NCBI GenBank assembly: GCA_903844735.1
Contig: CAIMUX010000080.1
Location: 18,820 to 82,819 of the forward strand
Direction of reading: 5' to 3'
Source: Candidatus Eiseniibacteriota bacterium
GTDB lineage: Bacteria; Eisenbacteria; RBG-16-71-46; CAIMUX01
Length of the DNA: 64,000 bases
The notes below the pieces were generated by a model. The model made no database searches. It saw only the letters and a list, made by a program, of their open reading frames with translations, and was not told where the DNA came from. Shown here one piece after another: positions 6,025 through 63,358 of the stretch. A program made the translations under genes and the position numbers. Positions within the stretch are counted from its first letter, which is position 1. Every line of letters starts with the position of its first letter.

Positions 6025-6124
6025 CTGAGATTCGGAGGGAACGAACACGAATGGCTTCGGACTTCGGGCTTCTGAATCCTGACTTCTGTCTGGGCCGCAG
6101 GGCATCGAGCCGTTTCTGGGGGCC
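6025..6124 (+). promoter_or_regulatory. conserved non-coding element copy 1 (CTGAGATTCGGAGGGAACGAA … GGCTTCGGACTTCGGGCTTC … GAGCCGTTTCTGGGGGCC) in the 5' region of the T9SS-cargo gene
   Basis: 21/21-nt identity with the inverted copy at 59999–60019. Second box 17/18 with 59932–59950. Confidence 0.5.
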
Positions 6125-6212
6125 ATGCGGATGGGGTGGTATCCTGTTTTCGGTCCCGGAGCCGCAGATTCGTCCCCGAGCCGGCCGCCGTCTCCTAACA
6201 GGAGCAGACCGC

Positions 6213-42368: not shown

Positions 42369-42519
42369 TCGAGTTGACCTTCCATCTGGGGTGATGCTAG
42401 CGTCCGGGAGGGCGCGGATGAATCGGCGGGTGGCGGCAAGCGGGGTGGGCCCGACCGCGCGACGTACAGCGGCGGAACCCGATGGAGAACATGGAGTTCT
42501 GGGGAGGGTGAGTCGCACG

Positions 42520-43281: not shown

Positions 43282-44146
43282 GAAGGTTTTGGGGAGAGGG
43301 TTGGACGTGCTGATCCCGAGGGCCACGTCGGGGGCGGAGCCGCGTCGAGGCGACGTCGTCCAAAGCGTGCCCACCGCGAAGGTTCGCCCGAACCCCCGAC
43401 AACCGCGCCGGCAATTTAATGACGAACGATTGGCCGAGCTGGCCCATTCGATCCGGGAGAAGGGGATTATCGAGCCGCTCATCGTCCGGCAAGCGGAGGG
43501 TGACGAGTTCGAGCTCATTGCCGGGGAGCGACGTCTGCGCGCGGCACAATTGGCCGGACTCGAAGAGGTTCCAGTGCTGCTTCGGAGGTCGGCAGATCGA
43601 GAGAGCCTGGAGATCGCCCTAATCGAGAACCTCCAACGCGAGGACCTCAATCCGGTCGATGAAGCGCGGGCCTATCTCCGCTTATCCGAGGAGTTCGGGC
43701 GGACCCATGCCGAGATTTCCCAGGAGGTTGGCAAGGACCGCACGACCGTCACGAATTTGCTACGGATACTGCGACTGCCCCAGGGCGTGCTGAGCGACGT
43801 TTCACGTGGAACGTTGTCTGTTGGGCACGCGCGGGTTCTTCTCGGTGTGGAAGATCCGGGGCGCCAGGCGGATCTGGCCCGGCGCATGGTTGCGGAGGGC
43901 TGGAATGTCCGCCAGGCCGAGCGTTTTGTTTCTCAGATCAACAGGCCTGCGAAAACCCGGGGCAGCAAGTCGGGCACCCCAAGCCGGGGCGGGGATGTGG
44001 TTCGGATTGAAAAGGCGCTTCGGTATGCATTGGGAGCGGAGGTCCACCTCGACCACGGGGTGAGCGGCGGACGGATCGAAATCCGTTACGAGAGCGACGA
44101 AGAGCTAGAGCGGATTCTGGAAGTGCTTGGGATACAGATTCACTGA
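43274..44146 (+). CDS. parB: chromosome partitioning protein ParB/Spo0J
   Basis: ParB box GERRLRAA and HTH region. Start MAKKVLGRGLDVLI overlaps the parA stop. Confidence 0.9.
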   Translation: MAKKVLGRGLDVLIPRATSGAEPRRGDVVQSVPTAKVRPNPRQPRRQFNDERLAELAHSIREKGIIEPLIVRQAEGDEFELIAGERRLRAAQLAGLEEVPVLLRRSADRESLEIALIENLQREDLNPVDEARAYLRLSEEFGRTHAEISQEVGKDRTTVTNLLRILRLPQGVLSDVSRGTLSVGHARVLLGVEDPGRQADLARRMVAEGWNVRQAERFVSQINRPAKTRGSKSGTPSRGGDVVRIEKALRYALGAEVHLDHGVSGGRIEIRYESDEELERILEVLGIQIH

Positions 44147-44172: not shown

Positions 44173-44721
44173 GTGGGCGGTTTTCCGGTCGCACCGGGGA
44201 GTCCGCAGCTAGTGTTCGGCTCCAAGTTGGGGCGAAAGGGACACGCAACGGCGCGGAATCACACGGTTTCCGTCCATGTTGCTTCATCCCGCAGCGGAAG
44301 AGCGTTCCAGTGGACGTTCTCCTGGTGGGCCGTTCGTGCCCTAATCGGAGCCGGGGGCGGGCTTGTTCTCGTGGTGGTGACAGGGATCTGTGGGCTCATT
44401 GGCTGGATCGACTCGACCGAACGGATGTGCCGCCTTCAGGCGGAAAATGACTCGTTGCGGGTTCAATTTCGCCGACTTGGGGAACTGGAGGCCAGTCTGG
44501 CCCGGATGTCGGAGTTGAATGAACAGATGCAGAAAATGTTTGGGGCGGGCTTACCCGCGGTTGAGACTAACGCGGATTCGTCGGCCGCGAACCACGGCGC
44601 GACCCATGGCGGGGACCGGAGAAGTCCGGGCGACAGCAGCGAACACCGAGCGGGAGGCAATGTGGCTCACCCTAGTCGTACCGGGAGTGGGCCACCCAGG
44701 TGGGAAACGGGATCTGACTAA
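44173..44721 (+). CDS. hypothetical membrane-anchored coiled-coil protein
   Basis: One TM (LIGAGGGLVLVVVTGICGLIGWI) followed by a coiled coil (RLQAENDSLRVQFRRLGELEASLARMSELNEQMQKMF). Start uncertain. Confidence 0.4.
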   Translation: MGGFPVAPGSPQLVFGSKLGRKGHATARNHTVSVHVASSRSGRAFQWTFSWWAVRALIGAGGGLVLVVVTGICGLIGWIDSTERMCRLQAENDSLRVQFRRLGELEASLARMSELNEQMQKMFGAGLPAVETNADSSAANHGATHGGDRRSPGDSSEHRAGGNVAHPSRTGSGPPRWETGSD

Positions 44722-44762: not shown

Positions 44763-45212
44763 ATGTTCGGAAAGAGAGACGAAACAGCCAGCGGAGACCG
44801 GCATGCCCATTCGATCCTTCAGGATGGGATGGTCGTTCAGGGGGTCGTGGATGCCAAAGGAGATGTCCGGCTGGACGGACATCTGGAGGGTAAACTTCAT
44901 GTGTCGGAGAGACTTACGGTTGGAGCCTCCGGGGTGCTGAACGCGGGCGTCGAGGCGGGTGAGGTCATCGTCATGGGAGCCATCGAAGGGACGATCCGAG
45001 CTCGCCGCCGCATCGAGCTTCGCAAGGGGGCCCGGGTCGTGGGGGACATCTCGGCGCCAATCCTGGTGATCGAAGAAGGTGTACATTTCCACGGGAACTG
45101 CAACATGCAACCAGGCGAGGCCCCATCGGCGGAGCCGGACCTCAAGACTCAGGCCTTGACCGTCGGTGAGGATCCCTTCGAGAAGAACAGGTATGAAAAG
45201 ATCTACCAGTAG
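44763..45212 (+). CDS. bactofilin (CcmA/DUF583)
   Basis: Beta-helical bactofilin repeats (VVQGVVDAKGDVRLDGHLEGKLHV…VIVMGAIEGTIRARRRIEL…VVGDISAPILVIEEGVHFHG) with GGAGGG RBS. Confidence 0.85.
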   Translation: MFGKRDETASGDRHAHSILQDGMVVQGVVDAKGDVRLDGHLEGKLHVSERLTVGASGVLNAGVEAGEVIVMGAIEGTIRARRRIELRKGARVVGDISAPILVIEEGVHFHGNCNMQPGEAPSAEPDLKTQALTVGEDPFEKNRYEKIYQ

Positions 45213-45331
45213 CCATCCTGGGTTCGCGGTGCCCGGACCAACGTGCCCATCATGACCCGAAACGCCCACAGCGCCTGGAGTCATCCTTTGGGATTGCCCG
45301 GTGCGGCAGTGGGCGTGGCGTGGGTGGCGAG

Positions 45332-45354
45332 TTGTGGATCGCGATGTGGATAAC
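45332..45354. promoter_or_regulatory. isolated DnaA-box pair (TTGTGGATC … TGTGGATAA) downstream of the bactofilin gene
   Basis: TGTGGATAA is a perfect reverse complement of TTATCCACA. A second 7/9 box lies 14 nt upstream. Confidence 0.4.
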
Positions 45355-45624
45355 CCGCGGGCAGGAACACCGGAATCTGGGATGCCACGGGCATAACGCA
45401 GTAACCGACTGTGGGACAGGCGACTATAGTCATCTGCCATGTGGAGTTTCAGGCACATGCTATGTTGATAGTTCACAAGAGGCGCAACACGCCCGCGCGG
45501 GGCCGTGAGATCGGCTGTCTCCCTTGTGGGCTTTCTGTTTGACACGTATCTGGGGCTGCTCTAACTTCAATGCGGGCTCGGTGCTCGGGGGGTGTGGTTA
45601 GTTTCCAAGAGGGGGTCAGATCCG

Positions 45625-47448
45625 ATGCGGCGGCTGTTTTTCGTCCTATTTGTCCTAGCCTCTCCTCTCCTCTGGAGCTGCTCCGAGAACGATACGCCGG
45701 CGGTTGTGGACCAGAGCGAGCCCGAGGTTCGCATCTGCTACCCCTATGACTCGGAGCCGACGACCTTCGTCGTTAACGATTCGATCAATGTCTACTTTGC
45801 TGCCCATGATCTGGGCCCGAACGGCCGCCAGGCTGAGCCGGCGAAGGTTGAGCTCTGGTTCTCCCGTCCCGGTACTCTCTCCGATACCACCGACCGCGTG
45901 TTGATCGGGATAGCGGGTAGGCCCATTTCCATCGACCAGGTGCCGGAGATGGACTCCAACCGGGTGGACTCCGTCCGGGCGATTGTCGAGCGCTCCCTGC
46001 CCGCGGGGTGGAGCTTGTACACGCGACCGTGGTTTACTGGGCCGACGCCTCTACCACCGATCGGCACACCGATCAACACGGGCACAGATGTGCAACTCTT
46101 TGCTGTCGCGTACGACGCGGCTGAAAATGTCGGGCGGACACCCGGTGTCGTTCGGGTTCACGTGACCAATTTCGGGGACGACATTGGACCACCCACGCCA
46201 CGCTTCACAGTCAACCCGCAATCGGGATCGACCGCCACCACGTTCGTCTTTGACGCATCCACGTCTACGGACCGGATCGACCGCGAGACCCACAAGATCA
46301 GTGTGAGATGGGATTTCGATGGTAATCCTGCGAACGGCTGGGACATCCCCTGGACCGCGAATGCCCGCGCCGACGAGAAGCAGAGTTGGCAGTATGCGGT
46401 GCCACGCACCTACCGCGCGACCCTGCAGGCCCACAATTCGTACCTCCCTGGCTCGGACAGCACGGTGACCCGCGACATCCTCGTGACATCGCTCGGGGGC
46501 TCTCCGCGACCGCCGGAGGAGAGCAACTACTGTGACATCCCCGCCGGAACCTATGTGATTGGTGACTCGATCTACGTTTCGGACGGCCAGACGTATCAGA
46601 CCGATGCCGTCGAGCGGCCGGTCCACGAGGTCGCATTCACCTCGACCTATCGGATCGAGAAGACGGAAGTCACAAACCGGCTCTATCTGGACTATCTACG
46701 TGCGGAACTGTATCCCGATACGGCGTCGATTGAGTACCGTGAAGGCGAGCGCCTCGTCTACTCATGGGATCCCGCGCACCCCGATGCACCGCGCGTGGTT
46801 TATTTTGACCCCAGCCTCTCCGAAATTTACTACAGCCTGGACAGCCGGACCTTCGCCATCAGGCAGGGTTACGAGGATCATCCGGTCACCGGCGTGACTT
46901 GGTTTGGCGCCAGCGCCTACGCCTTGGCGTACGGGTTGCGTCTGCCTACCGAGGCGGAGTGGGAGGTCGCGGCGCGTGGCGCCAACGGGGCCTGGAGCTA
47001 TCCGTTTGTTGGCGGGACAGAGCTGACCCTGGCCGCGGGGCCATACCGGGTGAACTATTTCGGGAGTCGAAACGGGACCGATCCGTTCATCGGCGGCACG
47101 GGGCCCACGACGCCGCGGGGTTTCTACAACGGACAGGTCTACGAAGGTTTCCAGACCCTGGACACGCCGAGCGCATTCGGGACATACGACATGGCCGGCA
47201 ATGTCGCTGAATGGGTGGGCGATTGGCTCCCAGCCTCGCCTCCTTTCTATCCCGAGTATCTTGACTCCGATCCGCAGGGGGCGTCGTCGGGGACGCATCG
47301 AGTGGTTCGGGGAGGCAGCTACCTGTCCAGCCGCGCCGGAGTGCGTTGCACGGCCCGCAAGGGTTCGCTGCCCACGGAGTGCTTTGCATCTGTCGGGTTT
47401 CGGACTGCGTACATCCGCCCCGTGGCCGCGCCTCCGCTCGGGCGGTAG
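45625..47448 (+). CDS. lipoprotein with PKD-like Ig domain(s) and C-terminal FGE-sulfatase (SUMF1) domain; GldJ/GldK/PorK-like
   Basis: Lipobox LLWS-C. PKD-like FDASTSTDRIDRETHKISVRWDFDGN. FGE-sulfatase motifs (HPVTGVTWFGASAYA…RLPTEAEWE…RVVRGGSYLS). Promoter-like TTGACA-N17-TAACTT at 45539–45567. Confidence 0.8.
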   Translation: MRRLFFVLFVLASPLLWSCSENDTPAVVDQSEPEVRICYPYDSEPTTFVVNDSINVYFAAHDLGPNGRQAEPAKVELWFSRPGTLSDTTDRVLIGIAGRPISIDQVPEMDSNRVDSVRAIVERSLPAGWSLYTRPWFTGPTPLPPIGTPINTGTDVQLFAVAYDAAENVGRTPGVVRVHVTNFGDDIGPPTPRFTVNPQSGSTATTFVFDASTSTDRIDRETHKISVRWDFDGNPANGWDIPWTANARADEKQSWQYAVPRTYRATLQAHNSYLPGSDSTVTRDILVTSLGGSPRPPEESNYCDIPAGTYVIGDSIYVSDGQTYQTDAVERPVHEVAFTSTYRIEKTEVTNRLYLDYLRAELYPDTASIEYREGERLVYSWDPAHPDAPRVVYFDPSLSEIYYSLDSRTFAIRQGYEDHPVTGVTWFGASAYALAYGLRLPTEAEWEVAARGANGAWSYPFVGGTELTLAAGPYRVNYFGSRNGTDPFIGGTGPTTPRGFYNGQVYEGFQTLDTPSAFGTYDMAGNVAEWVGDWLPASPPFYPEYLDSDPQGASSGTHRVVRGGSYLSSRAGVRCTARKGSLPTECFASVGFRTAYIRPVAAPPLGR

Positions 47449-47662
47449 GTCGCGCGGCCCATGTCTGGCGGGAGGCCGCCTCGATATCAAGGGATCGAGC
47501 GCCCCGGAACCGGTTGGCCGAAGACTGCCCCGAGGCTCGGACCGTTGTTGGGCGCAGCTCTTGTCTTCCTCTCCGGTTGCTTGAAGAAATCAGCAAGCTG
47601 TTGGACTCCTGGACGGCTCAAACCGCCGACACCGCTCACGCCACTTATACAGCCCGCACCGC

Positions 47663-50296
47663 TCACGCCGCTCGGAACCGCCCGGACTCGCCCTCCCAGG
47701 TCGTCAGTAGTTCTTCCAGCATGGGGGCGGGGACTGGTCGGCTGAAGTAGAATCCCTGGATCGCATCGCACTCCTCGTCGCGCAGGAAACTCAACAGCGG
47801 CAGGTTGTCGACCCCCTCGGCCACCACGCGCATTCGCAGTGTGTGCGCCATGGAGATGAGAGCGCGGGCGATGGCAGCGTCGCGCGGATCGCGGGTCGTC
47901 TTGCGGACGAAGGATCGGTCGATCTTGACCGTCTCGATGGGCAGTTCCCGCAAATGGTTGAGCGACGAATGGCCATGCCCGAAGTCATCGAGCGAGAGGC
48001 AGAGTCCCATCTCCTTGACCTCGATGATGGTGCTCCGGTGGTTGCGAATGGAACGGATCGCGACCTTTTCGTTGATCTCCAGGTCGAGCAGGCGGGGGTC
48101 GGCCCCGGTTTCCTCGAGAATTTCGCGAATCCTGGACGCCAGATCGGACTGTTGGAACTGGCGCAGGGAAACGTTCACCGCGATTTTCACCGGGGGTAGG
48201 CCCGCGCGTTTCCAGGCCACGAGGTCGAGGCAGGCCTGTCGAAACACGAACAGGTCGATCGGGACAATGAGACCGGTCTGCTCGGCGATGCGCAAGAACG
48301 ATAGCGGGAGCAGCAGTCCTCGCGTCGGGTGGCGCCAGCGGATGAGAGCCTCCACGCACTCGATGCGGTTGGAGGCAAGCGTGAGCTGTGGTTGGTAGTA
48401 GACGACGAACTCGCCGCTGCGGAGGGCGCGGTGCAACTCTCCCTCGATCCCCAGTCGTTCGGTGGCGCGGCGCGTCATGGCCGGCGTGAAGATCCGGAAA
48501 ACATCGCCGCCCAAGCTCTTGGCGCGGGACAGGGCGGTATCGGCGTGGTGAAGCAGGGCTTCCCCGTCGGTGCCGTCGACGGGATAGACGCTGGCGCCGA
48601 TGCTGGCGGTAGTGAAGATCTCACGTTGGTCCAGTTCATACGGGCGGGCGAGGTTGTCCAGGATCTTGCGCGCCACGCGGCCGACGTCCTCCACCAGGCG
48701 GATCTCGCCCAAGAGTATGACGAACTCATCGCCGCCGAGACGAACCACTGTGTCGCAGGCGCGCACAGAACGGACCAGCCGCTCGGCCACGCGGCGGAGA
48801 AAGCGGTCGCCAACTGCATGCCCCAGACTGTCGTTCACCACCCTGAAGCGGTCGATGTCCAGGAACAGGATCCCCAGCATGTGCCCCTGCCGACGCGAGC
48901 GCAGGATGGCCAGGTCGAACCGGTCTTGAAAGAGCAGTCGGTTGGGCAGGCCGGTCAGCGAGTCGTGGTACGCGAGGTGTGTGATCAGCTTTTCTGCCCG
49001 GCGGGTCTCCGTGACGTCACGCAGACTGGAGAGGAACCGCCGAACACCGCCGATCTCGATGATCTCGGCGCTGAATCGGCAGTCGCGTTCCTCGCCGGAC
49101 TTGGTCCGCACGACGAGCTCGACCTCCGAGAAGCTACCGTTCTGGAGGAGGGTGTCCCTCATCCGTTCACGCTCCTGGAGGCTTGGGAAGATCCCCAATT
49201 CCCAGGATGCCCGGCCGATCACCTCGTCGCGGGTGAAGCCGAGCTGGCGAGGGAAGGCGTCGTTGACCACAAGGTAACGGCCCTCCTCTACGGTGCTGAT
49301 CGCCAGGCAGAGGGAACTCGAGTTGAACGCCTTGGCGAAGGTCTCCTCGCTCTCTCGGAGAGCGGCAGTGCGTTGATCCACGCGCAACTCCAGTTCGTTG
49401 CGGGAGAGTCGCAGATCGGCTTCGGCCCGGTGGCGCTCCGCCACGAGGGAGGAGACCGCGAGGCCAGTGAAGGAGAGGACGGCGACAAACGCCTGTAGCT
49501 CGATGAGCGATCGGCTCTGGTCTGGCCCGCGAAACGGCCCGAGCCCGTGCAGGGTGCCGGTGATGGCGGCGGCTGAGAGAATGGCCAAAGGAGTCAAGAC
49601 CTTGCGGCGGTCAAGGTAGAAGGCGGCCCATACAACCAGCGCCAATAGAACGTGAGGAGCGATCTTGTGGGCGGGGGCCGACTCGCGGCTGAAGAACAGC
49701 AGCAGACCGAGGGGGATGGTGGCGACGAGCAGAAGGATGTCGCCGCGAAGGGACAGCCCTGACGGCCCACCCCGGAGCACCGCCTGCCAGGTCAGGACGA
49801 GTGGGGTCAGGATGAGAATGCTGGTCCAGTCGCCGAGCCACCAGCTGCACCAATTCTGTGCCGCCATGCCCGCCGGGACAAGGTGAACCAGTCCAAGGGC
49901 GGAGACTTCAACCGAGGCGGCGATCGCGCTTCCCAACGAGGAGACGGCACCGAACACGAAGACACTCTTCGCGGTGTGGAGCGGCTCGACCGGATCGCAG
50001 ATGCGGCGGAGAAGAGATTCCGCGATGACCACCTCGAGGGTGGAGCCGATTCCAATGGCGGCCGCGGCGTAGAGCGGGACCCCGGTGCTGAGGGCGACGA
50101 GCGACGCGCCCAGCCAGACCCCGGGCCAGACCGCGGGCCCGAGCATAAGGAGAACAGCCAAACTCAGCCCCGGCGGTGGCCAGAGTGGGGTCGTGTGGCC
50201 GCCGGTCGTCGCGAGGAGGAGACCGAGCTTCGCAGCAACGAAATAAGCCATTGCAAGCAGGCCGATTCTGGCCAGACGGATCTCGGCACCCCTCAT
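47663..50296 (-). CDS. membrane sensor diguanylate cyclase/phosphodiesterase (multi-TM MASE-like N-domain – PAS – GGDEF – EAL)
   Basis: About 9 N-terminal TMs. PAS segment. GGDEF (RLGGDEFVILL). EAL domain with ECVEALIRW…, DDFGHGHSSL, KIDRSFV. Confidence 0.9.
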   Translation of the reverse strand: MRGAEIRLARIGLLAMAYFVAAKLGLLLATTGGHTTPLWPPPGLSLAVLLMLGPAVWPGVWLGASLVALSTGVPLYAAAAIGIGSTLEVVIAESLLRRICDPVEPLHTAKSVFVFGAVSSLGSAIAASVEVSALGLVHLVPAGMAAQNWCSWWLGDWTSILILTPLVLTWQAVLRGGPSGLSLRGDILLLVATIPLGLLLFFSRESAPAHKIAPHVLLALVVWAAFYLDRRKVLTPLAILSAAAITGTLHGLGPFRGPDQSRSLIELQAFVAVLSFTGLAVSSLVAERHRAEADLRLSRNELELRVDQRTAALRESEETFAKAFNSSSLCLAISTVEEGRYLVVNDAFPRQLGFTRDEVIGRASWELGIFPSLQERERMRDTLLQNGSFSEVELVVRTKSGEERDCRFSAEIIEIGGVRRFLSSLRDVTETRRAEKLITHLAYHDSLTGLPNRLLFQDRFDLAILRSRRQGHMLGILFLDIDRFRVVNDSLGHAVGDRFLRRVAERLVRSVRACDTVVRLGGDEFVILLGEIRLVEDVGRVARKILDNLARPYELDQREIFTTASIGASVYPVDGTDGEALLHHADTALSRAKSLGGDVFRIFTPAMTRRATERLGIEGELHRALRSGEFVVYYQPQLTLASNRIECVEALIRWRHPTRGLLLPLSFLRIAEQTGLIVPIDLFVFRQACLDLVAWKRAGLPPVKIAVNVSLRQFQQSDLASRIREILEETGADPRLLDLEINEKVAIRSIRNHRSTIIEVKEMGLCLSLDDFGHGHSSLNHLRELPIETVKIDRSFVRKTTRDPRDAAIARALISMAHTLRMRVVAEGVDNLPLLSFLRDEECDAIQGFYFSRPVPAPMLEELLTTWEGESGRFRAA

Positions 50297-50518
50297 GCGG
50301 CGACTCCCCCCCGTCTCTGGTGCTCGGAGCGTGATCAACCTACATTGCTCTCACTAGGCTTTCGGCCACCCGGAGTGCGAGGTGAAGAAATCTTGGAATT
50401 GTGACCGGTCCACGCCTCCGCCTATGATGAAGAAAGTGGCCTCAGATGTGGTTTCCGTGCGCCGAGAGACGCGGACGACCAAGGATAGACGATGCTGCCG
50501 GCTCGCCACGGAGCCAGC

Positions 50519-50527
50519 GGGGGGGGG
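50519..50527. repeat. G9 homopolymeric tract in the 5' leader of cassette copy 1
   Basis: gcGGGGGGGGGcacgggaaggagatgcctGGTG; about 20 nt upstream of the GTG start. Confidence 0.6.
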
Positions 50528-50546
50528 CACGGGAAGGAGATGCCTG

Positions 50547-51797
50547 GTGACAGACCGATCGAATTTCCGCCGACAGGCGCCCGTCCGAGCGGTAGATCCT
50601 CCCCGCCTGTTCCTGCTCTTCGCCGTCCATCTCGTCTTGGCCGCGGTCGCGGTGTCGGCCAGACCTGCAAGCGCGCAGGGCTCCGCCCTGGTCGGAATCC
50701 CGGACTCGTCCGCGGTCGAGGCTCAGAACCTCCGGGCGATTGACACCCCGAACGATCGCGGCGAGAGCGTGAACCTCTCGTGGGAGCCGGCCGCGATAGA
50801 AGCGAAGGATCCCGCGGCGGTCTTTGGCTACGTCATCGAGCGTGCTGAGTCCACGGACGGGCCGTTCCGTGAAGTGGGGCGCGTTGTCGCCGGGACCCGG
50901 GAATTCGTCGAAGCCGACAGCCTCCGGGACGGGGTTGCCTACTTCTACCGGGTGCGCACCGAGCGGCCCGGCGGGGTCCTGAGCGGCGTGGCTGCGATCG
51001 CCGGGCCGGTGATCTCGAAGGGACAGCTCTTCGACAAGCGCAAGACGGTCACCTGCATCGCCACCGTCCTGTTCTGCCTCACTGTCGTCTGGCTGATCCA
51101 GCACGCGCGTCGGGGCAAGGCGATGTATATCCGACCGATCCCCGGGCTCTCGGCCGTGGACGAGGCGATAGGGCGCGCTACCGAGATGGGGCGGCCCATA
51201 CTCTTCGTCCCCGGGCTCGGGGGCTCCAGTGACGTCGCCACGCTGGCAGCCTTCACGCTTCTGGGGCGGGTCGGGCTCAAGACCGCCGAGTACCAGTCGT
51301 CGCTCATTGTTCCCTGCTACGACCCGATCGTCATGACCATCGCCCAGGAAATCGTGAAGTCGTCCTACCTGGGTGCGGGACGTCCGGAGATGTACCGGCA
51401 GGACGACGTCTTCTTTGTTACCCAGGACCAGTTCAGTTACACCGCGGCGGTCAACGGCATCATGTTGCGCGAGCGTCCGGCCACGAACTTCTACATCGGA
51501 AAGTTCTATGCCGAGAGCCTGGTGCTGGCCGAGACAGGCAACCTCGCCGGGTCGATCCAGATTGCGGGGACCGACGAGATCACCCAGATCCCTTTCTTCG
51601 TGGCAGCGTGCGACTACACCCTCATCGGCGAGGAGCTGTATGCGTCGAGCGCCTATCTTTCGCAGGAGCCACCGCTGCTCGGGACCCTCAAGGCCCAAGA
51701 CTACGCCAAAGCTGTGACGGTACTCGTGTTGATCCTCGGGGTCATTGCGGCACTTCTACACCATGACTGGTTCGTCAAACTGTTCCTCGTCGAGTAG
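50547..51797 (+). CDS. cassette protein A, copy 1: signal peptide – FN3-like domain – TM – conserved ~250-aa domain of unknown function – TM
   Basis: GTG start 6 nt after GGAAGGAGA. Signal RLFLLFAVHLVLAAVAVSA. FN3-like (NLSWEPA…GYVIERAESTDGPFREV…YFYRVRTE). Conserved core (IRPIPGLSAVDEAIGR.TEMG.P.L.VPG… AGTDEITQIPFFVAACDYTLIGEELYA) shared with 61465–62691. Confidence 0.6.
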   Translation: MTDRSNFRRQAPVRAVDPPRLFLLFAVHLVLAAVAVSARPASAQGSALVGIPDSSAVEAQNLRAIDTPNDRGESVNLSWEPAAIEAKDPAAVFGYVIERAESTDGPFREVGRVVAGTREFVEADSLRDGVAYFYRVRTERPGGVLSGVAAIAGPVISKGQLFDKRKTVTCIATVLFCLTVVWLIQHARRGKAMYIRPIPGLSAVDEAIGRATEMGRPILFVPGLGGSSDVATLAAFTLLGRVGLKTAEYQSSLIVPCYDPIVMTIAQEIVKSSYLGAGRPEMYRQDDVFFVTQDQFSYTAAVNGIMLRERPATNFYIGKFYAESLVLAETGNLAGSIQIAGTDEITQIPFFVAACDYTLIGEELYASSAYLSQEPPLLGTLKAQDYAKAVTVLVLILGVIAALLHHDWFVKLFLVE

Positions 51798-51806
51798 GGA
51801 GAAAGC

Positions 51807-52421
51807 ATGCAGCGATTGCTGCCCCGCATCATCACCTTCGTCTGTGGGATGTTCCTGGCCATCCAGTACTTCATTCCGCACAAGAGCTCTGAGAAGGTCT
51901 ACGAGACATCCATCGACTGGTTGATCATCGTGGGCGTCTTCGCCATCGTGCTTGGGATCCTCAGCCTGGTGACCGTCAACCTGGAGAAGATCCGGCGAAA
52001 GAGCGCGGGGTATCGGCACGCCTGGGTTCTCCTGGCCGGCCTGGTCTTTATGGTCGTGGCCGGGATCGTGACCGGGACGGGGCAGGACGGCCTCTTCCTG
52101 CGACTGGGGTATAACGCGATCCTAAACCCGATCACCGCGACGATGTTCGCGTTGCTGGCGTTCTACATCGCCTCGGCGGCGTACCGGGCTTTCCGCGCCC
52201 GCTCCGTCCTGGCCACCATTCTGCTGCTCTCGGCGATCATCGTGATGCTCGGGCGGGTGCCCGCGGGCGAGGTGATCCCGGGAATCCCGTGGCTGACCGA
52301 CTGGTTGATCAACGTTCCGAACATGGCAGCCAAGCGGGCGATCACCATCGGCCTCGGCCTGGGCGGGAGCGCGACGGCGCTCAAGATCGTGCTGGGCATC
52401 GAAGCCCCGCACCTTCGCTAG
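51807..52421 (+). CDS. cassette protein B, copy 1: ~205-aa polytopic (5–6 TM) membrane protein, unknown family
   Basis: GGGAGA RBS. Paralogous to 62729–63355 (shared STMFALLAFY.ASAA.RAFR.RSV… PNMAAKRAI.IGLGLG.SATALK.VLG.E). Confidence 0.6.
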   Translation: MQRLLPRIITFVCGMFLAIQYFIPHKSSEKVYETSIDWLIIVGVFAIVLGILSLVTVNLEKIRRKSAGYRHAWVLLAGLVFMVVAGIVTGTGQDGLFLRLGYNAILNPITATMFALLAFYIASAAYRAFRARSVLATILLLSAIIVMLGRVPAGEVIPGIPWLTDWLINVPNMAAKRAITIGLGLGGSATALKIVLGIEAPHLR

Positions 52422-52430
52422 GAGGATGCC

Positions 52431-53258
52431 GTGGCCCGCTTCAATATTCTCGAGCTCGACCGGCGCTTCATCTTCCTGATGATCTTTCTGTCGGTTCTGA
52501 CGCCGCTCTTCTTGCCGGCACCGAAGACTGTCAAGGTCTCTCCCGAGGTCAAGAAGGTCTACGACCGGATCGAGGCGCTCCCGGCCGGGTGCATCGTCAT
52601 GCTCGCCTGCGAGTACGACCCGTCGATGAGTGCGGAGATGTCGCCAGTGAACATGGTGGTGCTCCGGCAGTGCTTTCGCAAAAACCTCAGGGTGCTCACC
52701 ACCTGTCTGATGTCCAACGGGGTCTCCCTGGTGGAGAGCGAGATCAACCTTGTGGCTGCTGAGTACGACAAGAAGAACGGGGTCGACTATGTCTACCTCG
52801 GCTACAAGCCCTATCCAGCCGCGATCATCCTCGCCATGGGAGAGGATTTCCGGCTGGCCTTCCCCAGCGATTTCTACAACACTCGCCTCGACGACATCCC
52901 CATGATGAAGGGCGTGAAGAACTACCAGGACGTCTCGTTGGTCCTCGCCATCACCTCCACCAGCGGCATCGACTATTGGATCACTTACGGACAGGGTAGG
53001 TATCGCTTCCCTCTGGCGGCCGCCGCGAGCGCGGTGATGGCGCCCAATTACTACAACTACCTTGACTCGGGACAGCTCTTCGGACTCATCGGAGGCCTGC
53101 GCGGGGCGGCCGAGTATGAGCAACTGGCAAAGAAACCGGCCGCGGCCACCAAAGGCATGTTGGTGCAGTCGGTATCCCACTTGTTGATCGTCGGATTGAT
53201 CGTTCTCGGCAACGTCTCGTTCTTCGTCGCTCGCCGCCGCCGCCGCGGCCAGGAGTAG
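52431..53258 (+). CDS. cassette protein C, copy 1: bitopic protein (N- and C-terminal TM flanking a ~190-aa soluble domain), unknown family
   Basis: GTG start after AGGAGGA. Paralogous to the truncated ORF beginning at 63359 (shared …CEYDPS.SAE..P….VLR.CF.K..RVL…GEDF…FP.D.Y). Confidence 0.6.
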   Translation: MARFNILELDRRFIFLMIFLSVLTPLFLPAPKTVKVSPEVKKVYDRIEALPAGCIVMLACEYDPSMSAEMSPVNMVVLRQCFRKNLRVLTTCLMSNGVSLVESEINLVAAEYDKKNGVDYVYLGYKPYPAAIILAMGEDFRLAFPSDFYNTRLDDIPMMKGVKNYQDVSLVLAITSTSGIDYWITYGQGRYRFPLAAAASAVMAPNYYNYLDSGQLFGLIGGLRGAAEYEQLAKKPAAATKGMLVQSVSHLLIVGLIVLGNVSFFVARRRRRGQE

Positions 53259-53260
53259 TC

Positions 53261-53932
53261 ATGGATCCCGTCGAGATGCTCCTCCGCACGCTGGCCGTCT
53301 TCTTCACCATGGCCATCTTCTCCTTCCTCTGGAAGGACAACATGATCTACAAGTTCGCGGAGCACCTCGTAGTGGGGATCTCCATGGGGTACTGGTGTGT
53401 GATCCTCTACCAGACATCGTTCCTCTCCAAGATGTGGGGGCCGTTGACGCGGACGCTGGCCGGGCACCCCGAAGGGATGCCCGACCGACTCGTCTTTGTG
53501 CCGATCGCGCTGGGGCTCCTGCTATTCACTCGGTTCTTCCCGAAAATCTCGTGGCTGGCGCGCATCCCGATGGCGTTCATTCTCGGCGTAGGCTCTGGGG
53601 TGGCAATTCCTTTGGGGATCCAGGCCTCGGTGATCCAACAGATCCATCCCACGATGGCGGCGTTCCAACCGGCAACCTGGACCGGCGTCGGCTCGTGGTT
53701 CAACGCAATTCTGGTGCTGATGGGCGTGGTCTGCGGGCTAGCCTACTTCTTCTTCTCGGCGAAGCACACCGGGATCCTGGGCGGGATGTCGAAGATAGGG
53801 ATCTGGGTGCTCATGATCGGGTTCGGCGCCAGCTTCGGGTACACCGTGATGAGCAGGATCAGCCTGCTCTATGGCCGGGTGAACTACCTGGTGTTCGAGT
53901 GGGCAGGGCCGCTGGTGAGGGGACTGTTCTAG
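53261..53932 (+). CDS. cassette protein D, copy 1: ~223-aa 6-TM membrane protein, unknown family
   Basis: AGGAG RBS. Two-nt gap from protein C. Six hydrophobic segments. Confidence 0.55.
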   Translation: MDPVEMLLRTLAVFFTMAIFSFLWKDNMIYKFAEHLVVGISMGYWCVILYQTSFLSKMWGPLTRTLAGHPEGMPDRLVFVPIALGLLLFTRFFPKISWLARIPMAFILGVGSGVAIPLGIQASVIQQIHPTMAAFQPATWTGVGSWFNAILVLMGVVCGLAYFFFSAKHTGILGGMSKIGIWVLMIGFGASFGYTVMSRISLLYGRVNYLVFEWAGPLVRGLF

Positions 53933-53940
53933 CCGACCAT

Positions 53941-54714
53941 TCAACCCTTTCGGCTCACCACTGTCGCACCGGCCTGGCAGGTCGGCATCAGCACCATTTC
54001 CGCGACATTCATGTGGGCCGGACGGGTGATGGCGTAGACGACGGCATCCGCGACGTCATCTGGGGTCAATGGTGTGAGCCCCAGATAGACGCTCTTTGCC
54101 CTGGATTCGTCACCGTGGAACCGGACAAGGGAGAACTCGGTCTCCACCATGCCGGGGTCGACGGTCGTAACGCGAATTTCGGTGCCGTTCAAGTCGAGGA
54201 GCATCCCTTTTGAGATCGCCCGCTCCGCGAACTTTGATGCGCAGTAGACACTCCCTCCGGGGTACACCTCGCGGCCCGCGACGGAGCCGATGTTCACGAC
54301 ATGCCCGCGGTTTCGCACCACCATGCCGGGGATGACGGCACGGCTCACATAGAGCAGTCCCTTCACGTTCGTGTCGAGCATCTCCTCCCAGTCTTGGAGC
54401 AGTCCCTCGTGGAACTTGTTAAGTCCACGGGAGAGACCGGCGTTGTTGACGAGGATGTCGATGGCCGCCCACTCCGGCGGCAAGGCACGCACCATCGCCT
54501 CTACGTCCGGCTGCCTGCGGACATCGAGGGAAGAGGTCAGCACATCGAGGCCATGGGCGGCGCGGATCTCTTCGGCGAGAACGTCGACGCGGTCCAGGCG
54601 CCGAGCGGCGAGGAGGAGGCGGGCCCCTTCGACGGCGAGCGCGCGGGCGATGGAGCGGCCGATGCCGCTGCTGGCTCCGGTGACGAATGCCGTGCGGCCG
54701 TCGAGACGCTTCAT
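53941..54714 (-). CDS. short-chain dehydrogenase/reductase (classical SDR)
   Basis: TGASSGIGRSIA cofactor motif, NNAG, catalytic YCASKFA. Confidence 0.85.
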   Translation of the reverse strand: MKRLDGRTAFVTGASSGIGRSIARALAVEGARLLLAARRLDRVDVLAEEIRAAHGLDVLTSSLDVRRQPDVEAMVRALPPEWAAIDILVNNAGLSRGLNKFHEGLLQDWEEMLDTNVKGLLYVSRAVIPGMVVRNRGHVVNIGSVAGREVYPGGSVYCASKFAERAISKGMLLDLNGTEIRVTTVDPGMVETEFSLVRFHGDESRAKSVYLGLTPLTPDDVADAVVYAITRPAHMNVAEMVLMPTCQAGATVVSRKG

Positions 54715-54816
54715 GAACGGAACTCCTGTCTTTGGCGCCGTCAGATCCCGGCGGAGAGTGCGACGCGAGGCTGTCTGCTTCGTGATGGTTCCTGTCAGTC
54801 GTGGCGGATCCGGCGA

Positions 54817-56361
54817 TCAAGGCGGGTCGAGCGGTCCGCGGGCGCGAGCCCGGCCATCCAGCAGGGTGAAGGGGAGAACATCCTGACGCCGCTGCCGATC
54901 CTCAGAAGCAAGGACGTCCAGCAACGAGCGCTGATCCCACGTTTCTCGCAATCCACGCGTGACATCGAAGACCAGCGTGTCGACCGTGGCCGCGGCGCTG
55001 GCGGCATGGGCGTCGAGCGGAGTGCCGACCCGACCGCCCCGAGCTGGACTGCCGGAGGCGGGGCCGCCAACCGAGGAACCGGAGGAAGCGGCGGCGTGGC
55101 TCCCACCGGGATCACGGCCTCCAGCGGCCATGCCGCCGGGCGGTCCCGTGAGGCTGGCGTAGACATCGAACACGCTGATCTTTTCCGGGTTGCGTGCCGG
55201 GACCAGGATCATCTCGCGGCGACCGGTGGCGACCTGGTGAAGCACACCGCCGTCGACCAGTGTTTCGGCCACGGTGCGCACGAGGCGCAGCGGTAGTCTC
55301 AGCCGGCGCGCCAGGTTGGTCAGCTCCGGCGGGTCGAGCTCATCGCGGTAGCAGCGAACGGCCTCGAGCGCGACATGCATGCCGGCACGGAAGCGCTCCT
55401 CCAGTCCTGCCTTGGCGGCGCCGACCTCCAGCCGGAAATCCTGCGCCGCCTCGCGGGCGAACGCGAGCTGCGCGCCAAAGAGTACCACCAGCCAACTGAC
55501 ATAAACCCAGATGAGAAAAAACGGGACCGCAGCCAGGGCGCCGTAAAGGGTGCCATAGTGAACAGCGGTGCGCATGTAGGCGCCATACCCGAGCTTCAGG
55601 ATCTCCCAGAGCGTGCCCGCCACCAACCCGGCGGGCAGTGAGGCGCGCAGGCTAACCCGCACATTGGGCAGAATCGTGTATACCAGCGTGAAAGCGATGC
55701 CGGTGAGGAGCGCGGGCGCCAGTTGAAAGACGACGCCGAGGAGTGTCTCGAATCCGGTCGGGAAGGAAGCCAGCCAGTTCTGGAGCGCGAGAGTCTCGAG
55801 GCTGGCGGTGGCCGAGAGCGAGAGGCCGATGAGGATGGGCCCGAACACCACCAGGGTGGTGTAGATGGAAAACCGCTGGAAGAGCGAACGGCCGCGGTGT
55901 ACCCCCCAGATGTCGTTGAATGCCTGTTCCAGCGAGCCGAGCAGCCCGACGACAGCTCCGGCGAGCACCAGGATGGAGACCTCCCGGAAGGCCCCTCGAT
56001 CGGCCGCCGCGAAGAAGGACCGCAGCCACTCCTGCACTTGGCCCTGACTCCCCGGGGCCAAATTGACGACCAGGAAGTCCTCGACCTGCTGCCGCAGTCC
56101 TTCAAGGGCACCAAAGGCACGGAAGACCGAGAGAGCCAGGACGAGGACCGGCCCCAGGGTGAGGAGCGTCGTGAAGGTCATGGCCGAGGCGCGCAACTGG
56201 ATGCGTCCACGCGCCAGGCCGGTGGCGAAGATCACCGTCACTCGGAGCTGCCGGAAGGCCCATCGTTGCAGTCGCGAGACCGCCAAGATGTCGGGCTCCC
56301 AGATGCGGTGACGCAGGAGGTCGGTCGCATGTCTGCGCCAAGTGTGGATTCGTGCGTTCAT
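54817..56361 (-). CDS. YihY/BrkB family membrane protein with ~180-aa C-terminal extension
   Basis: YihY-type 6-TM core (…FTTLLTLGPVLVLALSVF…LYGALAAVPFFLIWVYVSWLVVLFGA…) followed by a soluble C-terminal domain and a G/S/A-rich tail. Confidence 0.7.
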   Translation of the reverse strand: MNARIHTWRRHATDLLRHRIWEPDILAVSRLQRWAFRQLRVTVIFATGLARGRIQLRASAMTFTTLLTLGPVLVLALSVFRAFGALEGLRQQVEDFLVVNLAPGSQGQVQEWLRSFFAAADRGAFREVSILVLAGAVVGLLGSLEQAFNDIWGVHRGRSLFQRFSIYTTLVVFGPILIGLSLSATASLETLALQNWLASFPTGFETLLGVVFQLAPALLTGIAFTLVYTILPNVRVSLRASLPAGLVAGTLWEILKLGYGAYMRTAVHYGTLYGALAAVPFFLIWVYVSWLVVLFGAQLAFAREAAQDFRLEVGAAKAGLEERFRAGMHVALEAVRCYRDELDPPELTNLARRLRLPLRLVRTVAETLVDGGVLHQVATGRREMILVPARNPEKISVFDVYASLTGPPGGMAAGGRDPGGSHAAASSGSSVGGPASGSPARGGRVGTPLDAHAASAAATVDTLVFDVTRGLRETWDQRSLLDVLASEDRQRRQDVLPFTLLDGRARARGPLDPP

Positions 56362-56501
56362 GAAGCCGCGATTCTAGCCGAAAGCCGAGCGCCGGGTCGA
56401 GCAGGGATGACGGGCGCGCGGGCAAGCCACACGGGAAGGGGCGGGTGGCGCCTCGTCGCCCGGCCCACAGCTCGGCGTCCTCCAGCCCGACGCCCGACGC
56501 C

Positions 56502-56528
56502 CGAAGTCCGAAGCCCGAAGTCCGAAGC
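56502..56528. repeat. tandem GAAGTCCGAAGCCCGAAGTCCGAAGCC (reverse complement of the GGCTTCGGACTTCGGGCTTC box)
   Basis: Sits in the divergent spacer between YihY and the second FGE lipoprotein gene. Related to the box inside the 6-kb and 59.9-kb elements. Confidence 0.4.
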
Positions 56529-56625
56529 CGGTCTTATTCCTTCCAAGCTCCGAACCTCAGGCCTCTTTGCGGTCCTTGCACCAACGCGATCCTCCCGTAG
56601 AATCTCGACAGGAGGTGTGCCGCCC

Positions 56626-58566
56626 ATGAGACGACTCTTTGCAACCACGGTCATCGTGATGGCCCTGGCCGGCTGTGGCGGTGACAAGCCGCTCATCAAG
56701 TTCGTCAACACGCCGCCGGAAGCGGCGCTCACTGCCGACCCGGACACCCTGGCCTTGGCAGACAGCTCGATTGTCACCTGCCTGGTCGGCGATCCCGACT
56801 CGGATGTCCTTACGTTTCGTTGGAGTGCCAGCGCCGGGCGCTTCATCCGGCGCGATCCGTCGATGTCACAGGTTTCCTGGATCGCCCCGGCCGTGGAAGG
56901 CGTGGACACCATCCGCGTCACGGTTTTCGACAACACCGACTCGGTCGAGGCTGTGGTGTGTGTGACGGTGGTCGGGCACACCGGCACGGTCCTCGGCGTC
57001 GTGAAAGATGGGACATCCGGAGAGGGCCTGGCCGGCGCGCGGCTCGAGATCGCCGGGCGAGTCGGAACCTCGGGCATCAAGGGCTTCTTCCGTCTCGAGC
57101 TTGTGCCGCCGGGTGTCGACACCCTCCATGCCACACGAGATGGGTACGAGCCATATGCCCAGCTCCTGCCCGTGCGGGAGGGAACGAACGAACTGGAAAT
57201 TCCGCTGCAGCGGGCCGCGCCCAGGGCGCGCCTTTTCGGCGAGGTGACCAATGGCCACGGTCAGGCCGTGGCCGGCGCCGTCTGCGGCGTGGGGGAGGAC
57301 GAAGTATCTACCGACGCCACGGGACAGTATGACTTTGCCGGGGTGCCGGTGGGTCTTCGGGTGCTGCGGGTTCGGGCTGATGGATTCTACCCGTTTCAGG
57401 ACACTGTGGATGTCCAGCAGCCGGAAGTCCGATTCGACATCGTCCTGCACGCGGCGCCGCCTGCTCCCCCCGAGGGACAGCTCACGGTGACGAAGCTTGC
57501 CGACTATCGGCTGCGGGTAAGCTGGGTCCCGCAAAATCCGTCCGCGGCGATCGCCGGCTTCAACCTCATCATGATTGCGAGCGGCGAGAGCCAGGGGTTG
57601 CCGGAGCCAGTTCCCGGCGGGCCGCTTCTTCGAAGCGGCGGCACTCGAGAGGTGATAGGAGCCGAGGACGGCCGGTACCGGTTCGCCGTGGCCGCCGTGA
57701 GGAGCGACGGGGTGGTGGGGGCGGCCACGCCTTACACCCCGATCGCCGTGCTCACACAGCCGAGCTCTCTGGTAAACGTGCCGGCGGGGCCGGTGATCAT
57801 GGGTTCCTATCCCGGTGACTATGGCAGCGAGGTGCATCCGGGAAACCCGATTCAGGTCCAGGCCTTCGCCATCGAAGCGCGTGAGGTGACCAATCGCCAG
57901 GTCGTGGCTTTCCTTGTAGAAGCGCTGGCGCAAGGCCTCGTGCAGGTAGGCGACCTCGCGGTGCGGGCCGGTGCGGATACGCTGCTCTTCTTCTCGGGGA
58001 GCCAGGTTGACCGCGACCCGCTCAACGACGGTTTCTCCGTGCCTCCGGGGTTGAAGGACTACCCGGTGACGGGCATCACCTGGTTCGGCGCCGACGCTTA
58101 TGCTCGCTGGTATGGGCGGCGGCTGCCGAAGGAATCTGAGTGGGAGAAGGCGGCACGCGGCACAGCCGATTCCACCGGTATCTACCCAGGGACCACGGTT
58201 GGCGTGGGAACGATGTATCCGTGGGGCAGGGCGCTGCCGTCCGTGGAGCGCGCCAACTGCCAAAGCCTCTTCGGTGGAAAGCGACCGGTCGGCTCTTTCC
58301 CTGACGGCGCGGCGCTGTGGTGGGGCACGCCGGTCTATGACCTCGCGGGGAATGTCTGGGAGTGGTGTGACGACTGGTTTGCGGCGTACGCCAACCCGCA
58401 CCAGCCTCCGGCAATCGGGTCGCGCAGAGTGGTGCGCGGCGGCGCCTGGGATGGCTCGGACGCGGAGATCCGGGTCGGCCACCGGTGGTTTGTCGCGCCC
58501 GCGCTGAAAAGCACCAAGATCGGTTTTCGGTGCGCTGCGGACCCGGCGAAGGATGCGCCGGGCTAG
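56626..58566 (+). CDS. lipoprotein with Ig-like/CarboxypepD_reg-like and FN3-like domains and C-terminal FGE-sulfatase domain; GldJ/GldK/PorK-like
   Basis: Lipobox LAG-C. GGAGG RBS. Two beta-sandwich modules (GTVLGVVKDGTSGEGLAGARLEI… / LFGEVTNGHGQAVAGAVCGV…). FGE-sulfatase motifs (YPVTGITWFGADAYARWYGRRLPKESEWE…RVVRGGAWD). Confidence 0.8.
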   Translation: MRRLFATTVIVMALAGCGGDKPLIKFVNTPPEAALTADPDTLALADSSIVTCLVGDPDSDVLTFRWSASAGRFIRRDPSMSQVSWIAPAVEGVDTIRVTVFDNTDSVEAVVCVTVVGHTGTVLGVVKDGTSGEGLAGARLEIAGRVGTSGIKGFFRLELVPPGVDTLHATRDGYEPYAQLLPVREGTNELEIPLQRAAPRARLFGEVTNGHGQAVAGAVCGVGEDEVSTDATGQYDFAGVPVGLRVLRVRADGFYPFQDTVDVQQPEVRFDIVLHAAPPAPPEGQLTVTKLADYRLRVSWVPQNPSAAIAGFNLIMIASGESQGLPEPVPGGPLLRSGGTREVIGAEDGRYRFAVAAVRSDGVVGAATPYTPIAVLTQPSSLVNVPAGPVIMGSYPGDYGSEVHPGNPIQVQAFAIEAREVTNRQVVAFLVEALAQGLVQVGDLAVRAGADTLLFFSGSQVDRDPLNDGFSVPPGLKDYPVTGITWFGADAYARWYGRRLPKESEWEKAARGTADSTGIYPGTTVGVGTMYPWGRALPSVERANCQSLFGGKRPVGSFPDGAALWWGTPVYDLAGNVWEWCDDWFAAYANPHQPPAIGSRRVVRGGAWDGSDAEIRVGHRWFVAPALKSTKIGFRCAADPAKDAPG

Positions 58567-61307: not shown

Positions 61308-61452
61308 GGGCGGCTCGACCGGCGGCTTGGTTGGCGGCGCCATTGGCAGATCGGTTCGTTGCCAGATGCGCTGTTTCGCGGGTATCCTATGTGGGGCCGG
61401 CGCGCCAGCGGGCGACGCGGGGACCGGGAGAAACGGCGGGAAGGTCACGACC

Positions 61453-61461
61453 GGGGGGGGG
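61453..61461. repeat. G9 homopolymeric tract in the 5' leader of cassette copy 2
   Basis: gaccGGGGGGGGGccgATG; 3 nt upstream of the ATG. Confidence 0.6.
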
Positions 61462-61464
61462 CCG

Positions 61465-62691: not shown

Positions 62692-62728
62692 CGGCGCGGC
62701 CGCAGTTCATCACCGAGAGGTCCGGGTC

Positions 62729-63355: not shown

Positions 63356-63358
63356 GCC

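Follow-up and report, generated by a model that had tools for sequence, protein, structure and literature searches.

We analysed a 64,000-nucleotide stretch of DNA (hereafter the window) from a Candidatus Eisenbacteria genome, which contains two genes with a formylglycine-generating enzyme (FGE) domain, named here FGE1 (45625..47448, + strand) and FGE2 (56626..58566, + strand), and no other gene with this domain. Both encode lipoproteins whose FGE domain keeps the fold and structural motifs of the enzyme and has lost its copper-binding cysteine pair. Since the pair is lost and the fold is kept, the domain is most likely a binding module. We thus read FGE1 and FGE2 as envelope lipoproteins in which a pseudo-enzyme domain of the FGE/C-type-lectin-like type would be held off the membrane by a beta-sandwich stalk; for FGE1, which lies in an origin-proximal block of genes, the closest partner is probably a membrane protein with tetratricopeptide repeats (TPR), and we give this reading as a whole a probability of roughly 0.6. 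A preliminary description of the same DNA had offered two possibilities, a divergent module resembling the type IX secretion system (T9SS) or a different use of the FGE fold, and it is the latter that stands, both proteins being lipoproteins without the catalytic cysteine pair.

Domain architecture and catalytic site of FGE1 and FGE2

The open reading frame (ORF) of FGE1 encodes 607 amino acids and starts with MRRLFFVLFVLASPLLWS-C (LLWS-C), that of FGE2 encodes 646 and starts with MRRLFATTVIVMALAG-C (LAG-C); ORF boundaries and lipoboxes agree with the preliminary description, and identical products of 607 and 646 amino acids are called on sister contigs. In FGE1, a signal peptide and acidic mature start (45625..45693, + strand; lipobox L-W-S-C with Cys19, then C-S-E-N-D) are followed by an N-terminal module of two Ig-like/PKD-like beta-sandwiches (45721..46494, + strand; residues ~33-180 and 190-290) and by a non-catalytic FGE-sulfatase (C-type-lectin-like) domain (46534..47409, + strand; residues 304-595). 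The AlphaFold2 model, built from 40 orthologues and with a predicted local distance difference test (pLDDT) score of 86.6, likewise has two beta-sandwiches and then the FGE fold, which bears out the N-terminal module and C-terminal FGE domain proposed earlier. The N-terminal module is conserved and specific to the family, with the motifs VRWDFDG (PKD-like, in the second beta-sandwich, residues ~190-290) and DxAGNxGRSD, and some orthologues give weak Pfam matches to Big_7 and PKD.

FGE2 has the same overall plan with a longer array. Its signal peptide and mature start (56626..56697, + strand; lipobox L-A-G-C with Cys17, then a conserved C-G-x-D-K-P-L) precede an N-terminal beta-sandwich array (56713..57726, + strand; residues 30-367) of one Ig-like, two CarboxypepD_reg and one FN3-like domain, and a non-catalytic FGE-sulfatase domain (57766..58536, + strand; residues 381-637). 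The AlphaFold2 model shows four confident beta-sandwich domains in residues 30-370 (blocks mostly at pLDDT 72-94), Pfam finds CarboxypepD_reg twice (65 bits) and a distant orthologue (P0082) has a weak fn3 match, in line with the modules first recognised from the sequence alone. Most of the FGE domain of FGE2 is modelled at pLDDT below 50, and its fold is assigned from sequence matches; it carries a family-specific insertion of 12 residues after AARG. The two proteins are 33% identical, with the similarity confined to the FGE domain, and Pfam family PF03781 scores 139 bits on FGE1 and 145 bits on FGE2 against a gathering cut-off of 23.3.

We aligned the catalytic site of FGE1 by phmmer with the structures 2q17, 6muj and 6s07 and by MAFFT with six orthologues. 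In the alignment with the FGEs of S. coelicolor and T. curvata, the catalytic stretch reads RGGSYLCHDSYCNRYR in the S. coelicolor enzyme; at the site equivalent to its CxxxxC, FGE1 has RGGSYLSSRA---GVR (47308..47346, + strand), with both cysteines absent and three residues deleted, and FGE2 has RGGAWDGSDA---EIR (58435..58473, + strand), with both cysteines absent and a loop three residues shorter. The cysteine pair, which the preliminary description had singled out for checking, is missing from FGE1, from FGE2 and from every orthologue aligned, FGE2 orthologues at 44% and 36% identity included. The core motifs VTN, RLPTEAEWE, GNVxEW, RGGS and GFR are retained. Taken at face value, the labels would make the two proteins genuine formylglycine-generating enzymes that mature periplasmic sulfatases: Pfam and JGI label both FGE, their best sequence matches in the PDB are catalytic FGEs (88 bits for FGE1 and 70 bits for FGE2, against 35 and 39 bits for PorK), and the top Foldseek match of the FGE1 model is S. 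coelicolor FGE (2q17, E 7e-17, TMt 0.70). We consider this next to impossible, as the cysteine pair has gone together with three residues in the window proteins and in all aligned orthologues, and no sulfatase gene was found among the scanned ORFs of the window or in the orthologue neighbourhoods examined; at the sequence level the loss of the pair refutes a sulfatase-maturation role. What the two share with catalytic FGEs (human SUMF1; S. coelicolor 2q17; T. curvata 6s07) is the fold and the core motifs, whereas they lack the copper-binding cysteines, are lipid-anchored and stand on beta-sandwich stalks.

A cysteine-less FGE fold displayed as a binding module has precedents. The literature portrays PF03781 domains as modules for sensing or binding that have a lectin fold and occur fused to many different effectors (PMC8195603), and fusions to kinase, TIR, caspase and vWA domains occur among FGE1 homologues. 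In this respect FGE1 and FGE2 are like the variable proteins of diversity-generating retroelements (DGR), such as T. denticola TvpA (2y3c, which is among the PDB matches of FGE1 and FGE2), and like FGE-type sensor domains; they differ from both in that their C-terminal region is conserved among close orthologues and no effector domain is fused. The possibility that either is itself a DGR variable protein was rejected: a search of 40000-64000 for direct repeats gave no template repeat for either gene, and no reverse transcriptase is among the Pfam matches of the window.

Homologues spanning most of the length of FGE1 number about 45-50 among 5.8 billion proteins, down to 31% identity, and at least 40 full-length orthologues reach the same limit (31%); those with a name are from Eisenbacteria, and the family occurs across this phylum. 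A metagenome scan with the N-terminal module yielded seven further loci. In a metagenome-contig scan with the full-length FGE1 alignment, the patterns were drawn from generic FGE motifs and there were no orthologues among the matches listed. In three relatives whose GyrB is 92%, 80% and 69% identical to that of the window (loci L005, L007 and L009; L and P numbers denote orthologue loci and proteins throughout), FGE1 is 68%, 37% and 33% identical, respectively, and hence diverges much faster than housekeeping proteins, a pattern typical of exposed envelope proteins. The FGE2 family is separate from that of FGE1 and narrower: a word-indexed search found 17 orthologues at an identity of at least 49%, and an exhaustive profile search, in which 77,424 clusters passed a threshold of E 1e-10, about ten full-length clusters of the family at the 50% level.

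The residues after the lipidated cysteine of FGE1 form a nearly invariant mature start, C-S-E-(D/E/N)-(D/G), with Ser at +2 in 30 of 34 orthologues, Glu or Asp at +3 in 33 of 34 and Asp or Glu at +4 in 17 of 34. Lipoprotein surface-export signals (LES) of Bacteroidota read SDDDD and SDDFE (PMC5080379), and when judged by the same pattern, a polar residue and then an acidic run after the lipidated cysteine, the start of FGE1 resembles them; FGE2 has no such run, and neither has the mature start of PorK and GldK (C-G-S-S...). By analogy with these signals FGE1 may lie at the cell surface, and if a similar export pathway exists in Eisenbacteria, a surface-exposed FGE1 would speak against a periplasmic, PorK-like role.

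Comparison with GldJ, GldK and PorK

The preliminary description had labelled both proteins GldJ/GldK/PorK-like by analogy with Bacteroidota. GyrB assigns the genome instead to Candidatus Eisenbacteria, to which all named relatives at 65-77% GyrB identity belong but one (Desulfovirgula thermocuniculi, 66%). The phylum, named Candidatus Eiseniibacteriota by NCBI and ranked there with the candidate phyla, has to our knowledge no cultured members, and is generally taken to be close to the FCB group, in which T9SS is found. Because the genome is not from Bacteroidota, the FGE fold is no marker of GldJ, GldK or PorK here. FGE domains about 30% identical to residues 300-595 of FGE1 are found, among the matches listed, in Chlamydiae, Nitrospira, Actinomycetota, Chloroflexi, Planctomycetota and many other groups, and we know of no T9SS in some of the phyla with equally similar FGE-domain proteins.

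The label fails on the scores of hidden Markov models (HMMs), on the invariant cysteine, on the insertions and on gene context. The GldK/PorK model TIGR03525 scores 68.7 bits on FGE1 and 62.1 bits on FGE2 against a cut-off of 350, matching in the C-terminal half of the model alone; the GldJ models score 32.0 and 22.1 bits (TIGR03524, cut-off 458) and 17.2 and 30.4 bits (TIGR03530, cut-off 383) on FGE1 and FGE2, respectively, and the EgtB model scores as high as the GldK model or higher on both. In the Foldseek list of FGE1 the best PorK chain ranks 29th (TMt 0.41). GldK C343 and PorK C356 are invariant in GldK/PorK, where this residue forms a disulfide to SprF or PorG (PMC12635249). Using a Bacteroidales GldK as a PDB query (L091, 350 bits to PorK), we recovered the segment of PorK around C356; RGCFLGN of PorK and KGCFLAN of the Bacteroidales GldK align to AGPYRVN in FGE1 and VERAN in FGE2. 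In the cysteine column, members of the FGE1 family have Pro or Gly, and those of the FGE2 family have Val, Gly, Glu, Thr or Ala. The FGE2 of the window has a cysteine five columns further downstream, directly after the aligned Asn, at a position where its orthologues have Tyr or Phe. Neither FGE1 and FGE2 nor their orthologues have the two insertions of GldK/PorK (~130 residues after VTN and 17 residues before RLPTE), which canonical FGE lacks too.

As the preliminary description had itself noted, no homologue of the L, M or N components follows either gene, which Pfam and gene calls confirm, and no GldL/M/N-type Pfam family occurs in the window or within the flanks (up to 10 kb per side) of orthologues at some 12 loci. 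A lipoprotein signal and the loss of the catalytic cysteines are present in both proteins, but they are common to many members of the family and do not discriminate. Searching the literature for Eisenbacteria in connection with T9SS or type IX secretion gave no result.

On this evidence it is very unlikely that FGE1, FGE2 or both are divergent GldK/PorK/GldJ-like subunits of a T9SS-like or gliding machine with its partners elsewhere in the genome or in the DUF6754 cassettes described below. The idea draws on the lipid anchor and the cysteine-less FGE fold, shared with GldJ, GldK and PorK, on the partial GldK-model matches of 69 and 62 bits, which are weak, on the usual placement of Eisenbacteria near the FCB group and on the TPR protein that follows FGE1 in relatives, loosely reminiscent of the TPR lipoprotein PorW/SprE. 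It is opposed by GldK and GldJ scores five to twenty times under their cut-offs, by the absence of the PorK C356/GldK C343 cysteine and of both insertions in all members, by a sequence and fold nearer to canonical FGE than to PorK, by the lack of GldL/M/N-type Pfam families in the ~12 neighbourhoods, by the some ten transmembrane segments of the TPR protein, which make it unlike a PorW-type lipoprotein, and by a DUF6754 cassette that is not linked to either gene. The architectures differ as well: in GldK/PorK and GldJ the FGE domain directly follows the lipid anchor, whereas in FGE1 and FGE2 280-370 residues of beta-sandwich come first, and GldK/PorK and GldJ belong to Bacteroidota with a porLMN context, whereas FGE1 and FGE2 are from another phylum and have none. 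Separately, we observed in a Bacteroidales metagenome-assembled genome (L013:1930-3330) a 467-residue lipoprotein with an acidic run after the cysteine (C-D-K-E-D-D). The FGE domain at its C-terminus is preceded by an extension with no assigned fold, and the protein shows no obvious likeness to GldK, suggesting that Bacteroidota, too, possess FGE-fold lipoproteins beyond GldJ, GldK and PorK.

Genomic context of FGE1 and FGE2

Wherever an FGE1 locus has enough flanking sequence, the gene order parA-parB-M23 peptidase-bactofilin-FGE1-TPR membrane protein is kept, with three exceptions given below, as seen in L005, L007, L009, L092/93, L094, L095, L096, L098, L172, L173 and the P0017 contig. In the window, the block is anchored upstream by parA-parB (42418..44146, + strand; Pfam, gene calls and synteny). 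An ORF at 44173..44721 (+ strand) appears to be a remnant of the M23 peptidase, corresponding to its transmembrane and coiled-coil N-terminal part, a resemblance judged by eye against the N-terminal part of the L009 M23 peptidase and a 93-residue ORF of L005; Pfam finds no M23 match in it, the catalytic domain having been lost in the clade of the window. A full M23 gene lies between parB and the bactofilin gene in L009, L092-L096, L098 and L173. L096 is the only lineage examined in which a bactofilin gene (in the window 44763..45212, + strand; 149 residues; Pfam Bactofilin) does not lie upstream of FGE1. The TPR gene has been lost in the lineage of the window itself (absent at 47449-47662), and a relative at 72% identity retains it.

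The TPR membrane protein genes (L005:11768-13678, L007:12015-14255, L009:11717-13759, L172:11965-13878 and L173:11832-13763) encode proteins with about ten hydrophobic segments, a conserved acidic motif in the first loop, HPxxxE..GRxELL and C-terminal TPRs. Searches of Pfam, NCBIfam and PDB sequences recognised the TPR part alone, with no match for the membrane part, which may resemble GT-C/TMTC-type glycosyltransferases. Downstream of the TPR gene, neighbourhoods differ, with a sigma-54 regulator in L007, a cluster containing gamma-glutamyltranspeptidase (GGT) and glycosyltransferase genes in L009 and L173, and a GGDEF-EAL gene in the clade of the window, and the conserved block therefore ends at the TPR gene. 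The FGE1-TPR pair is kept while synteny further downstream is lost, which points to selection on the pair. FGE1 and the TPR gene are 13-230 bp apart in most loci, a spacing that suggests co-transcription in most lineages; the bactofilin gene and FGE1 are 300-700 bp apart.

Known bactofilin-M23 modules include H. pylori CcmA-Csd1/2 and Hyphomonas BacA-LmdC, and M. xanthus has parAB-adjacent bactofilins (BacNOP). The relatives of the window resemble these in having M23 and bactofilin genes side by side, directly after parAB, but no module known to us has an FGE-fold lipoprotein or a polytopic TPR protein among its members, and searching the literature for bactofilin in combination with formylglycine gave no result. 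The clusters that follow the FGE1-TPR pair in L009 (13863-21665) and L173 (13756-21758) encode a hypothetical protein, gamma-glutamyltranspeptidase, a GT4 glycosyltransferase, a class I/II aminotransferase, a faintly acetyltransferase-like protein, an NAD-dependent epimerase/reductase and PAP2, a set reminiscent of bacterial ceramide or glycolipid synthesis genes. An aminotransferase-epimerase pair is also present elsewhere in the window (3612-6231, - strand).

The 412-bp spacer between the bactofilin gene and FGE1 (45213..45624) contains a perfect DnaA box at 45345-45353 and a degenerate second box at 45332-45340. An alignment of the spacers of orthologues showed recurrent words of the type TGTGGATAA, which is the DnaA box TTATCCACA read from the opposite strand, and the 64-kb window has a single perfect DnaA box, the TGTGGATAA at 45345-45353. 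With at most one mismatch, DnaA boxes occur in this spacer in 9 of 11 lineages, against a chance expectation of ~0.03 per 500 bp. Judged from these motifs, the spacer may contain a DnaA-regulated promoter or a titration site. The window (G+C ~65%) covers the replication-origin region, with gyrA, gyrB, dnaN and dnaA on the minus strand and, in order, yidC, jag, gidB, parA, parB and the bactofilin gene on the plus strand; the minimum of the cumulative GC skew falls at ~32-34 kb. From the GC skew, the switch in gene strand and a cluster of one-mismatch DnaA boxes, we judge the main origin to be at dnaN-dnaA-rpmH, ~9 kb from the FGE1 spacer. Promoter and terminator scans around FGE1 and FGE2 gave matches at chance level, and an Rfam scan of the window gave none. 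At the start of the window (3-929, + strand), 45 kb from FGE1, there is a partial radical SAM/SPASM protein; anaerobic sulfatase-maturing enzymes are members of this broad class.

FGE2 is monocistronic and lies between opposite-strand genes in every locus seen. In the window these are a BrkB/YihY-family membrane protein gene (54817..56361, - strand; Pfam), divergent to FGE2 across a shared upstream region of 264 bp, and a B3/4-domain gene. The pairing of BrkB with FGE2 is kept in L005/L010, L011, L003 and L174 (FGE2 identity 44%) and absent in L175 (36%).

Each FGE gene also lies a few kb upstream of one copy of a four-gene A-B-C-D cassette containing DUF6754 (50382-53932 and 61327-64000), all four proteins of which are membrane proteins. 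The preliminary description was right about the distances, the cassettes starting 2934 and 2761 bp downstream of FGE1 and FGE2, and its suggestion of a functional tie did not survive comparison with relatives. The genes in between are on the opposite strand or unrelated, those between FGE2 and cassette 2 being one opposite-strand gene and two unrelated transporter genes. In L005/L010 (GyrB 92% identical) the order is FGE1, TPR protein, GGDEF-EAL, SDR, BrkB, FGE2, B3/4, TauE, DUF1634 and cassette 2, with cassette 1 absent; L172 and L011 both have it. No DUF6754 gene occurs near FGE1 orthologues of 31-38% identity in the flanks available (10 kb per side in the longer loci), and the FGE2 orthologues at 44% and 36% identity, which lie on short contigs, have no cassette. 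As cassette 1 is missing from a relative that keeps FGE1 and no cassette occurs in the available flanks of the distant orthologues, the link between FGE genes and cassettes is positional only, and the symmetry seen in the window is a local gene order common to close relatives. A joint duplication of FGE gene and cassette was rejected in view of the 33% identity of FGE1 and FGE2 in the FGE domain alone, the differing intervening genes and the age of the cassette paralogues (amino acid identities of 47% for A, 45% for B and 34% for C). Cassette 2 always lies between TauE-DUF1634 on its upstream side and an EamA gene on its downstream side; we noted in it a 41-nt tandem direct repeat of 78% identity (62662-62743) that spans the end of gene A and the start of gene B.

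Weighing the explanations and their meaning

The loss of the FGE cysteine pair is compatible with chemistry other than formylglycine formation, and FGE1 and FGE2 share it with pFGE/SUMF2, with PvdO and with the C-domains of EgtB and OvoA. They could accordingly be PvdO/NirV-type accessory or redox proteins in the periplasmic maturation of a metabolite or metalloprotein: PvdO, EgtB, SenA and OvoA models match weakly, PvdO and EgtB structures are among the fold matches of FGE1, and cysteine-less members with enzymatic or accessory roles are known, NCBIfam naming PvdO a 'dihydropyoverdine dehydrogenase'. We rate this as rather unlikely. Every score is far under its cut-off, those of the EgtB/OvoA/SenA models (cut-offs 360-420 bits) being 72-84 bits and confined to the C-terminal FGE part; Pfam finds no DinB-type iron domain in either protein, the N-terminal regions being beta-sandwiches; there are no pathway genes, with no pyoverdine, ergothioneine or nirK genes nearby; and a lipid anchor with beta-sandwich stalks is more in keeping with a binding module on display than with an accessory enzyme in solution. 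A different objection concerns the neighbours of FGE1 rather than its domain. Its position might be historical, FGE1 being a surface adhesin or receptor in its own right, fast-evolving and located by chance in the rarely rearranged origin/parAB region, with no working relation to bactofilin, M23 peptidase or TPR protein, and we treat this as a real if minor possibility. It would account for the long upstream spacer with its own DnaA-box region, for a lineage that kept FGE1 after losing the M23 domain and the TPR gene, for the loss of bactofilin in L096, for a divergence far faster than that of GyrB and for the LES-like N-terminus; it accounts less well for the preservation of the FGE1-TPR pair where synteny past the TPR gene is not preserved, and for the 13-230 bp spacing that suggests co-transcription in most lineages.

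Several of these observations also weigh against our own preferred explanation, a displayed pseudo-enzyme binding domain with the TPR protein as the probable partner of FGE1. Its functional claims rest on fold, motif and gene order. The lineage of the window keeps FGE1 despite having lost both the TPR gene and the M23 catalytic domain, and FGE1 therefore does not depend strictly on either in cis. Bactofilin and FGE1 are probably separate transcripts, given the spacer of 300-700 bp, and bactofilin is absent in L096; gene order around the origin and parAB may owe its conservation to causes other than function. The argument for surface export of FGE1 is borrowed from a Bacteroidota signal and holds by analogy. 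Finally, PvdO and the EgtB C-domain lack the cysteines and are still needed for redox chemistry, so 'non-catalytic' is, for FGE1 and FGE2, a prediction.

A more ambitious extension, which we hold as doubtful, would join FGE1, the M23 peptidase, bactofilin and the TPR protein, perhaps a glycosyltransferase of the GT-C/TMTC kind, into an undescribed envelope module of Eisenbacteria that is wired to replication and segregation. The wiring would run through the place of the module directly after parAB and through the conserved DnaA boxes before FGE1, and FGE1 would be either the lectin-like part at the outer membrane or cell surface or a substrate that the TPR protein glycosylates.

A machine of the T9SS kind in a phylum other than Bacteroidota, organised around an unknown cassette, would have been notable, and the evidence removes that reading. 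For annotation it follows that the description 'FGE-sulfatase lipoprotein' does not imply GldJ, GldK or PorK; they can be told apart by the HMM cut-off and by whether the invariant cysteine and the two insertions are present. FGE1 and FGE2 are an ordinary kind of protein, and what is new is the conserved context of FGE1. The conserved DnaA-box site, which lies outside oriC, could mark a DnaA-regulated promoter, and the uncharacterised block next to parAB, in which a candidate phylum combines a bactofilin-M23 pair with an FGE-fold lipoprotein and a TPR protein, is a testable lead for envelope biology.

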